Source: a virus
Virus genome (UHGV): UHGV-0129090
Length of the DNA stretch: 34,582 nucleotides
Reading direction: 5' to 3' (one strand)
In this document: positions 3,201-4,154 of the stretch, one piece after another
How positions within the stretch are numbered: position 1 is the stretch's first letter
Layout: every line of letters starts with the position of its first letter
Notes under the pieces: generated by a model
Database searches by the model: none
What the model saw: only the letters and a program-made list of their open reading frames with translations
What the model was told of the DNA's origin: nothing
Translations under genes and position numbers: made by a program

Positions 3201-3848
3201 TTAATAGCCAGTAAATGAAGCTAGAGCAATCTGTACTTGTGCTGACCCCATCGCCTGAGCGTAAGTCATTTGGTTTTTGTTAACGTACTGTAAAGTGAAA
3301 GACGTAGAACTATTTCGCCTAATCATAATCCCACTATAACCAGTAGTTGCCCCGTCATCCGATAAGTTGCCAGGACACTGACTAATACAGATCCACGGAT
3401 CGGCAAACGGTGTAGTTAGTGTCAATGCCGTACCTAAGTTATGACCAGCCGGAATAGTAAAGAAGCCACGAATACGCGGCATTGTTGCAGCACTTGCCGC
3501 CGACCATATAAGAGTACCAGCACTATTACGTACATCTAGATAACCAGATGTAAGAGCCGTAGTATTATTACTGAGCATGAATCTACCGCTACCTGCTTCA
3601 TACATCGATGCACCCGGAAAACAATATTTTCCATTCGTTTGCAATTGAAACCAGCGTAATCCAGTATTGGGGAAAAAGTTTAAAGCGAGATAGCCCAATG
3701 TTGAGCCATTACCAAATGATGAGTTTATTGTATAGTAACCAATATCGGATAAACTACCCATTGCTTTGACAGAAGACATAACAATAGCTCTATTATCTGA
3801 ATCTATTGTTAGTTTACCTGCTGAGTTGTAACATTGAAAACCTGACAT
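3201..3848 (-). CDS. Hypothetical tail-distal protein (possible fibre/adhesin), paralogous at N-terminus to 3858-4154
   Basis: N-terminus MSGFQCYNSAGKL resembles MAQGLQCWNASGVL of neighbouring ORF; Gly/Ser/Thr-rich; located downstream of tail tip gene. Confidence 0.4.
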   Translation of the reverse strand: MSGFQCYNSAGKLTIDSDNRAIVMSSVKAMGSLSDIGYYTINSSFGNGSTLGYLALNFFPNTGLRWFQLQTNGKYCFPGASMYEAGSGRFMLSNNTTALTSGYLDVRNSAGTLIWSAASAATMPRIRGFFTIPAGHNLGTALTLTTPFADPWICISQCPGNLSDDGATTGYSGIMIRRNSSTSFTLQYVNKNQMTYAQAMGSAQVQIALASFTGY

Positions 3849-3857
3849 TATTAATCC

Positions 3858-4154
3858 TTATTCAAATGCGTATATATCGAAAGTTAAAGTTTGTGCCATT
3901 ACATATCCAGTAGGAATATGACGTACTGAAAAAGAGTTAGTGCCAGGAATACAATAGAAATCCGTCCAATATTGAGAAGTACGGGCAATTGCTAACCATC
4001 CAGTCGGACGCATACCATTAAAAGCTACACTCCATGTAGTCGTAGTACCTGCTGCAATAGCTAATGACGCAGTACCCATATAACGCATATTATAATCGCC
4101 TAAATCTACTACCAGTACACCGGAAGCATTCCAGCATTGTAGACCCTGAGCCAT
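3858..4154 (-). CDS. Hypothetical tail-distal protein, N-terminal paralog of 3201-3848
   Basis: Shared G-x-Q-C-[WY]-N-x-x-G-x-L motif at N-terminus. Confidence 0.4.
   Translation of the reverse strand: MAQGLQCWNASGVLVVDLGDYNMRYMGTASLAIAAGTTTTWSVAFNGMRPTGWLAIARTSQYWTDFYCIPGTNSFSVRHIPTGYVMAQTLTFDIYAFE

Follow-up and report, generated by a model that had tools for sequence, protein, structure and literature searches.

Background

Phages IsaakIselin (Bas10), JohannLBurckhardt (Bas11) and IME347 depend on YncD, and the allelic "bona fide RBP loci" (RBP, receptor-binding protein) that lie beside gpJ track the receptor (Maffei et al. 2021, PMC8594841). A recent preprint (10.64898/2026.04.02.716166) assigns a YncD-specific RBP family to this gpJ-adjacent locus, predicts that the temperate, HK639-like phages LMessi and Eeyore use YncD, and calls the FhuA-, BtuB-, LptD- and YncD-associated families "unrelated". 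One such protein family, phrog_1265 (DUF6453), is, as shown by cryo-electron microscopy (cryo-EM), an RBP (PMC12685063). Here we consider two open reading frames (ORFs), of 98 and 215 amino acids (aa), that lie downstream of the tail tip gene in the virus genome UHGV-0129090, at 3858..4154 and 3201..3848. Both are found where a preliminary description of this DNA had located them; they lie on the minus strand. "The window" refers throughout to the whole stretch that was analysed, 34,582 nucleotides (nt) of DNA.

We propose, with a probability of roughly 0.6, that the two ORFs constitute the J-distal receptor-recognition module of a siphovirus prophage in yegD, in which the 215-aa protein is the RBP, the 98-aa protein is an adaptor, and a hairpin at the start of each docks on J. 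The locus type is already known from the literature, and a Pfam family exists for the 215-aa protein. Apparently undescribed are the shared N-terminal hairpin echoing the C-terminus of J, the modular architecture, which is either split 1+2 or fused, and a link at the level of fold between YncD-type and LptD-type RBPs.

A shared N-terminal hairpin

The 98- and 215-aa proteins start with MAQGLQCWNASGVLVVD and MSGFQCYNSAGKLTID, respectively, and both contain the motif G-[LF]-Q-C-[WY]-N-x-x-G-x-L-x-[VI]-D. From conservation and structure models, the hairpin occupies residues 4-17 of the 98-aa protein (GLQCWNASGVLVVD; 4104..4145, minus strand) and residues 3-16 of the 215-aa protein (GFQCYNSAGKLTID; 3801..3842, minus strand). 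When the proteins are compared by BLASTP, this N-terminal stretch alone aligns, with 7 of 14 positions identical and 11 of 14 positive (E 4e-4). A shared start motif is thus present, as had been claimed, but to call the two starts "near-identical" was an overstatement. The DNA encoding the two N-termini is identical at 31 of 51 positions; the likeness exists at the protein level only, and the element is therefore not a DNA repeat. In a six-frame translation of the window, a loose pattern derived from the two N-termini, [LFIVMW][QE]x[WYF][ND]xxGx[LIMVF], is expected 0.12 times and was found three times. Besides the two N-termini, the only further match was the last 20 residues of J. The shared motif is genuine, beyond chance.

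The hairpin is also the best-conserved part of both protein families, in which it takes the form G-hydrophobic-Q-x-aromatic-[ND]-x-x-G-x-L-x-hydrophobic-D directly after the initiator Met. An alignment of the 98-aa family (33 sequences, including three distant phage homologues) has six invariant columns, G4, Q6, W8, D17, D20 and R24, all of which fall within residues 4-24. An exhaustive profile search with this family returned about 120 cluster representatives, nearly all of which are stand-alone, 90-108 aa long and matched from residue 1 onward. These retain M-x-x-G-[LIF]-[QKRE]-x-[WYF]-[DN]-x-x-G, and the remainder has diverged almost beyond recognition. The same search returned large repeat proteins that match the beta-sandwich core only; one protein, P0237 (601 aa, with 10 motif "repeats"), was discarded as an unrelated repetitive sequence. 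In the 215-aa family (160 homologues, all PF28254/DUF8377), G3 and N8 are invariant, G11 is invariant or nearly so, and F4, Y7, G11, L13 and D16 are at least 90% conserved. The motif was originally written as G-x-QC-[WY]-N-x-x-G. As a shared motif this survives, and its conservation in homologues, the check that had been set for it, was seen in the 33 aligned sequences, in the roughly 120 representatives and in the 215-aa family. The Cys, however, is not conserved in the 215-aa family, most members of which have V or L at this position (V/L/C).

Families, models and modules

Searches with hidden Markov models placed both proteins in families over their full length. The 98-aa protein matches phrog_7961 (E 5.5e-24, residues 1-98 against positions 1-108 of 108), and the 215-aa protein matches phrog_4524 (E 1.8e-59, residues 1-214 against positions 1-230 of 230). 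All 120 listed homologues carry an annotation of DUF8377 (PF28254.1), as does P0034, whose sequence and that of the 215-aa ORF are 100% identical; RefSeq gives the name DUF8377 to an identical protein. Our literature search found nothing on DUF8377. Neither protein had a match in Pfam or NCBIfam (the Pfam copy was older than DUF8377), and profiles of the two families returned nothing significant among PDB sequences (best E 0.17 and 1.3). Both proteins lack a transmembrane (TM) segment, a signal peptide and a lipobox, and neither has a hydrophobic N-terminus (maximum Kyte-Doolittle value 0.92-0.93).

The AlphaFold2 model of the 98-aa protein (predicted local distance difference test, pLDDT, 88.8) shows a beta-sandwich behind a hairpin formed by strands E6-8 and E14-17. 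Its first 20 residues have a block-mean pLDDT of 70-74, compared with 87-98 elsewhere. Likewise, in the model of the 215-aa protein (pLDDT 89, predicted template modelling score 0.82) the first 20 residues reach 55-58 versus about 95 in the adjoining core. This protein contains a second, internal hairpin, SGYLDVRNSAGTLIWSA (residues 101-117; 3498..3548, minus strand), which opens a second module and is among the most conserved blocks of the family. In the models, its strands (E105-107 and E113-116) and those of the hairpin in the 98-aa protein share one 3-5-4 geometry.

Profile comparisons extend the relationship beyond the hairpins. Over 80 columns, the N-terminal half of the 215-aa family can be aligned with the 98-aa family (P = 1.2e-4); the C-terminal half gives P = 0.023 against the 98-aa family, and the two halves of the 215-aa family align with each other at P = 0.0057 (hhalign). 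Thus the proteins look like repeats of one hairpin-plus-beta-sandwich module, which occurs once in the 98-aa protein and twice in the 215-aa protein, a relationship for which the sequence support is moderate. The view that the proteins diverge after their start motifs is too simple, given this alignment and the internal copy of the hairpin. It had also been suggested that a shared attachment domain carries different distal domains; an attachment element is plausible, but the distal parts are repeats of a single module rather than unrelated domains.

An obligate pair behind J

To define the arrangement in related phages, 80 IMG/VR loci were fetched with the DUF8377 profile and parsed by script; the counts refer to the parsed loci. 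All of them contain J, then a hairpin protein of 96-100 aa, then a protein of 213-218 aa. The spacing within the pair ranges from -4 to +12 nt, with one truncated exception, and start and stop codons often overlap; the distance from the end of J to the 98-like gene ranges from -1 to about 260 nt. This layout is also that of HK639 (gp24/gp25) and Cronobacter phage SG01. The pair remains adjacent to J and intact in Drexlerviridae such as IsaakIselin, although there it runs convergent with J. The two proteins behave as an obligate pair and not as alternative tips. The earlier suggestion that they are candidate receptor-binding or fibre-tip modules is supported by their coupling to J in every related locus, by the lack of TM segments and signal peptides, and by the presence of homologues in the RBP locus of IsaakIselin and IME347.

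A similar arrangement, J followed by a protein of about 100 aa and one of about 210-250 aa, with the hairpin N-terminal in each, is found in more distant phages. In T1, J is followed by a 101-aa protein starting with MAYGISTWDANG, a 229-aa protein and cor; in N15 the order is gp21, gp22 (MTWGIQTWDANG), gp23 and Cor; and in mEp235/HK022 proteins of 100 aa (p24) and 212 aa (p25) come before Cor. The corresponding proteins have 102 and 244 aa in Burkholderia vB_E173, 129 and 253 aa in Stenotrophomonas SBP3.1phi2.1, and 102 aa (unannotated) and 241 aa in Achromobacter Axy14; in Ralstonia YO082_3 a hairpin-initiated ORF of 105 aa directly follows J. An internal hairpin near residues 109-127 of the medium-sized protein is present in T1, N15, mEp235, Burkholderia and Stenotrophomonas. 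The counterparts belong to PHROGs 557 and 425 in the coliphages and to 2427 and 4062 in the others. Cross-matches are weak: the 98-aa protein hits phrog_2427 at E 1.2e-6, phrog_4062 gives E 0.0012 with the 98-aa protein and E 0.022 with the 215-aa protein, and phrog_2427, a small-protein family, is matched at E 0.035 by the medium protein of mEp235 in its second half. The hairpin-initiated gene of about 100 aa after J is unannotated in GenBank in Achromobacter phage Axy14 (L095 2707..3015) and in Cronobacter phage SG01 (L004 5001..5291), which suggests that this family is under-called in phage annotations.

The C-terminus of J

The gene preceding the pair encodes a J-like central tail fibre or tail tip protein of 1100 aa (4396..7698, minus strand; Pfam Phage_Tail_Tip at 1.2e-18 plus fn3, and PHROG "central tail fiber J" at 8e-53), and the C-terminal hairpin, the third copy of the motif in the six-frame scan, lies at 4399..4458 (minus strand). 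The ending ...LRVR[ML]GL[WF]* is shared by all J proteins captured from IMG/VR loci with the pair. Endings of this type are widespread: a match to at least 80% of the last 69 aa was present in 550 phage records. The J proteins of Rtp, Oekolampad and Oslo have another ending, ...G-V-T-V-N-L-P-G-G-G-R-V-V-V-G-x-W/F (...GVTVNLPGGGRVVVG..), and the RBPs of these phages have another start, M-x-x-G-I-L-I-D-Y-N-D-G-R. In Vibrio phage Pel, a protein of the DUF6453 family with an N-terminus of the window type stands behind a J end of the window type. In these sequences, the hairpin type of the RBP N-terminus co-varies with the type of J C-terminus. A J-type C-terminal hairpin also ends a 307-aa gene upstream of P0281 (see below), in an unrelated genomic context.

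In the RefSeq record NZ_CM151386.1, whose prophage is 99.8% identical to that of the window, J is annotated as two overlapping coding sequences (CDS; L001 7195..10501), named "phage tail tip fiber protein" and "fn3 domain protein"; the window has one intact ORF for J. A frameshift or a sequencing error in that assembly probably accounts for the split.

Single-chain relatives

The Oekolampad/Rtp44 family, Pfam DUF6453 (PF20051; phrog_1265), consists of single chains of 311-321 aa; the sum of 98 and 215 is 313. Conservation in this family is highest in an N-terminal M-x-x-G hairpin, and hairpin-like motifs recur near residues 115 and 208. By sequence, the window proteins are not members of DUF6453: they have no Pfam match at E <= 1, although the Rtp-like P0154 scores 2e-113. 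In three dimensions, they share the fold of the DUF6453 LptD-type RBP, and a fold-level link thus appears to join YncD-type and LptD-type RBPs. Two further proteins have the fused form. Pel_0083 of the Vibrio phage (364 aa) is a full-length member of phrog_1265/DUF6453 that also matches phrog_557, a family of small proteins, with residues 1-89 and phrog_425, a family of medium-sized ones, with residues 196-254. P0281, a metagenomic protein of 313 aa, starts like the 98-aa family and has three hairpins; it was found by exact look-up alone, and the viral and genome contig collections yielded no context for it. Our literature search on DUF6453 found a single incidental mention.

The receptor

IsaakIselin and IME347 carry homologues of both window proteins. 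At full coverage, the small protein is 31-38% identical to the proteins of YncD phages, and the 215-aa protein 38-46% (37.8% for IsaakIselin, at 100% coverage, 37.8% for IME347 and 44.9% for LMessi). The preprint defines its families by >30% identity at full coverage, and the 215-aa protein falls within the YncD-specific family by this measure, assuming that the RBP of the preprint is the 215-type gene. It does so by location as well: on one and the same strand, the J stop lies at 4396, and 4154 and 3848 are the starts of the 98-aa and 215-aa genes. In LMessi, we infer from counting genes from terL that CDS_0021 of the preprint is the 215-type gene and CDS_0020 the 98-type "accessory" gene. 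That the prophage uses YncD is, on this analysis, a prediction to which we would give slightly less than even odds.

The third gene of the IsaakIselin locus, bas10_0024 (L003 6729..7061), has a 110-aa product (phrog_25729) that bears a signal peptide and is a candidate factor for YncD-directed superinfection exclusion. A literature search for virion proteomics of NBD2 found nothing useful, and a paper on a Cronobacter tail fibre was set aside, as it concerns the lateral fibre and not the J-adjacent locus.

A model for the module and its alternatives

In the proposed mechanism, the 215-aa DUF8377 protein would be a receptor-binding protein made of two hairpin-initiated beta modules with the fold of the Oekolampad LptD-binding RBP. 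Going by the homologues in IsaakIselin, JohannLBurckhardt and IME347, its likeliest target would be YncD or a related outer-membrane protein. The 98-aa protein, a single module, would be a tail-proximal adaptor or accessory part of what elsewhere is one chain of about 310-360 aa; a role as the adaptor in a split RBP, on the tail-proximal side, is probable. Docking of the hairpins is suggested because the hairpin is the best-conserved part, is free of the core in the monomer models, lies at the N-terminus and resembles the end of J. The N-terminal hairpins may dock non-covalently on the hairpins of the trimeric J tip by beta-strand pairing or stacking. The variable beta-sandwich surfaces would then face the cell, with the C-terminal module of the 215-aa protein toward the receptor and the 98-aa module tail-proximal.

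This model draws on conservation, synteny, similarity of fold and the correlation with receptors in the literature. Incorporation of the two proteins into the virion would fit their operon position, the gene overlaps and the fold, all of which support a role at the tail tip indirectly. Several points count against the model. The J C-terminal hairpin is very common, and its likeness to the N-terminal hairpins could reflect a generic preference for beta-hairpins. The co-variation of hairpin types was seen in a small number of loci, and phylogeny confounds it in part. In the cryo-EM study of T1, the C-terminus of J and anything attached to it were unresolved. Whole-family comparisons by hhalign of the window families (alignments A3 and A2) with DUF6453 (A4) gave P values of 0.036 and 0.056, which are not significant, in agreement with the preprint's "unrelated", and at the level of modules the best P was 0.0028 among 15 tests, with most pairs not significant. 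Regarding the receptor, the correspondence of "CDS_0021" and "CDS_0024" of the preprint to the 215-type gene comes from gene counting and not from sequence. In addition, identity to the proteins of YncD phages is only 38-46%, and the family also occurs in phages of Klebsiella, Cronobacter, Acinetobacter and Pantoea; therefore, the receptor may differ.

Other explanations of the pair lead to different roles for the two proteins. The preliminary description pictured two alternative RBP tips for different receptors that dock at the same site of J through the shared hairpin. Such an arrangement would suit a trimeric J, with its three C-termini, and both proteins do have a hairpin followed by a beta-sandwich or lectin-like body. 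The screens with IsaakIselin, which score the lipopolysaccharide (LPS)-core genes hldE and waaC beside yncD, could hint at a second ligand, although the LPS-core dependence may be indirect. However, the genes are never seen apart, their sizes and order are fixed across very distant phages, and the single-chain fused forms argue for one composite device; we consider alternative tips unlikely. The 98-aa protein might instead be an assembly chaperone or attachment factor of the Tfa or gp38 type, which serves the 215-aa RBP and is absent from the mature virion. Its gene is small and always directly precedes the RBP gene, with which it is translationally coupled, and the preprint speaks only of "accessory proteins". 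On the other hand, the 98-aa protein has no similarity to known fibre chaperones in Pfam and NCBIfam, shares the hairpin of the RBP and has a fold like the distal domains of tailspikes and fibres, and the equivalent segment is part of the RBP chain in the fused relatives, so that a chaperone role seems improbable.

The genes could also be non-structural, either morons or superinfection-exclusion genes, as exclusion genes such as Cor and Rtp45 occupy this locus in other phages and the PHROG labels of the T1/N15 counterparts (phrog_425, phrog_557, phrog_1265) read "membrane associated protein", "outer membrane protein" and "moron". Since phrog_1265 is a proven RBP, these labels are outdated. Moreover, the absence of a signal peptide, lipobox or TM segment from both proteins speaks against this idea, as does the fact that the exclusion proteins of these loci are separate small lipoproteins, and we give it very little weight. 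Finally, the shared motif could be due to chance, or be a purely structural signature of beta-hairpins with no common function. D/N-x-x-G hairpins are common in beta-rich fibre proteins, and the internal copy in the 215-aa protein is simply part of the fold. Yet no other segment in either family is as conserved across hundreds of sequences as this motif, which in both proteins lies exactly at residue 3-4; it also recurs at the N-termini of non-homologous counterparts in many phages and exceeds its expected frequency in the window; a meaningless resemblance is thus highly improbable.

The transcription unit and the prophage

The pair is part of a unit, J-98-215-88, on the minus strand. Between J and the 98-aa gene lies a small acidic ORF, a CDS of the RefSeq annotation in an identical prophage, which spans 4154..4339 from the RefSeq start (61 aa) or begins at 4402 as the longest ORF (82 aa; 4154..4402, minus strand). 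Its product is very acidic, with the C-terminus ...TDEEEQQQGDSE, and has no family match in Pfam and PHROG searches. The ORF is a variable insert: only loci in which J and the 98-like gene are 190-260 nt apart have it, and HK639-like loci do not. Its stop codon and the ATG that starts the 98-aa gene overlap (TAATG), and a spacer of 9 bases separates the 98-aa gene from the 215-aa gene. A stem-loop with a U-run after the J stop (~4350-4395) resembles a terminator; it was rejected, being no better than shuffled sequences (z = -1.3). The last gene of the unit (2867..3133, minus strand) encodes an 88-aa protein with a TM segment and a coiled coil (maximum Kyte-Doolittle value 1.97; weak DUF2730, holin and Rz-like matches). 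A bidirectional terminator-like hairpin identified by a terminator scan at 2845..2871, with an 11-pair stem followed by a T-run on the plus strand and an 8-pair stem with 5 G-C pairs on the minus strand, closes both this unit and the convergent lysozyme gene.

The window contains a complete siphovirus prophage with terminase, portal, protease-capsid fusion, tape measure, Dit and J. The prophage sits inside E. coli yegD, and the halves of this Hsp70-family gene flank it at 2..676 and 33768..34532 (plus strand). The integrase, a 532-aa large serine recombinase (Resolvase + Recombinase + Zn_ribbon_recom), is encoded at the right end beside the junction (32206..33804, minus strand). Among 5426 complete E. 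coli genomes, matches to this rare prophage occur in 2; a megablast search of the region against the phage collection gave no nucleotide match. Between the tail module and the prophage end are a SegE-type GIY-YIG homing-endonuclease-like gene (1909..2397, minus strand) and the lysozyme gene (2387..2839, plus strand). There are two paralogous major-tail-protein genes, one for a plain protein of 152 aa (12293..12751, minus strand) and one for a protein of 1233 aa (12810..16511, minus strand). The first ~145 residues of the latter match the major tail protein phrog_158, and the rest consists of tail-fibre repeats with a Peptidase_S74 intramolecular chaperone domain at the end; judged from its sequence, the protein would be a tail tube subunit with its own fibre.

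Comparison with known systems

A broader and tentative proposal, which we regard as possible though rather doubtful, is that all gpJ-adjacent RBPs of lambda- and T1-like siphoviruses (the FhuA-, YncD- and LptD-types and the Burkholderia, Stenotrophomonas, Achromobacter and Vibrio counterparts) derive from one ancestor with three hairpin-initiated beta-sandwich modules. The modules would occur either as one chain (DUF6453, Pel_0083, P0281) or split 1+2, and the N-terminal hairpin would be a universal plug, its subtype matched to the cognate J trimer, with three hairpins per RBP unit set against three J C-termini. If so, RBP modules would be exchangeable between phages by matching hairpin types. 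The split/fused three-module view would also link RBP families that recent work calls unrelated and, if correct, would provide a rule for receptor prediction and for RBP swaps in host-range engineering. For the attachment of RBPs to J, the conserved hairpin offers a concrete docking hypothesis that can be addressed by mutation, and for the window itself the predicted receptor of this rare E. coli prophage is YncD or a related transporter.

Among described systems, the C-terminal receptor-binding domain (RBD) of lambda gpJ would do the same job at the same place in the virion; in lambda it is a covalent part of J. The C-terminal 300 aa of the window J have no detectable similarity to lambda J, and lambda can therefore not be used as a fused-RBD reference. 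T5 offers a functional analogy, in that pb5 is a separate RBP held non-covalently on the tip of the trimeric central fibre pb4, and its tail-proximal part is disordered in the receptor complex; the window proteins have no fold or sequence similarity to pb5. Nor do they resemble exclusion lipoproteins of the Cor/Llp/Rtp45 type, of which Cor and Rtp45 start MKK...GCS. The DUF6453 RBPs (Rtp44 and the Oekolampad RBP, PDB 9rpt; PMC12685063) are single chains of 311-321 aa that bind LptD, whereas the window has 98 + 215 aa in two chains; the tail-proximal part of the RBP in the solved Oekolampad complex is likewise poorly ordered (PMC12685063). Compared with the window pair, they have another hairpin subtype, paired with another J C-terminus.

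Closer in organization are the FhuA-associated pairs of T1, N15 and HK022/mEp235, which resemble the window pair in architecture, sizes, order after J and type of J end. Their small protein starts M-x-[YW]-G-I-[QS]-T-W-D-A-x-G, and their medium protein has the internal hairpin G-[MF]-A-I-W-D-x-x-G-K-L-V-L near residue 110. They differ in belonging to PHROGs 557/425 rather than 7961/4524, the families being linked solely through phrog_2427, 3370 and 4062, and in being followed by the Cor exclusion lipoprotein; those phages use FhuA. Also among the close relatives is the YncD-type locus of IsaakIselin (bas10_0026/bas10_0025), JohannLBurckhardt, IME347, HK639 (gp24/gp25), LMessi and Eeyore. The window differs from it in belonging to a temperate phage with another set of tail-tip genes (Dit, a 216-aa protein, DUF6950 and J), in having the extra acidic ORF between J and the pair, and in lacking a signal-peptide protein like bas10_0024 downstream. 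The protein families, their adjacency and the N-terminal hairpins are the same in both.

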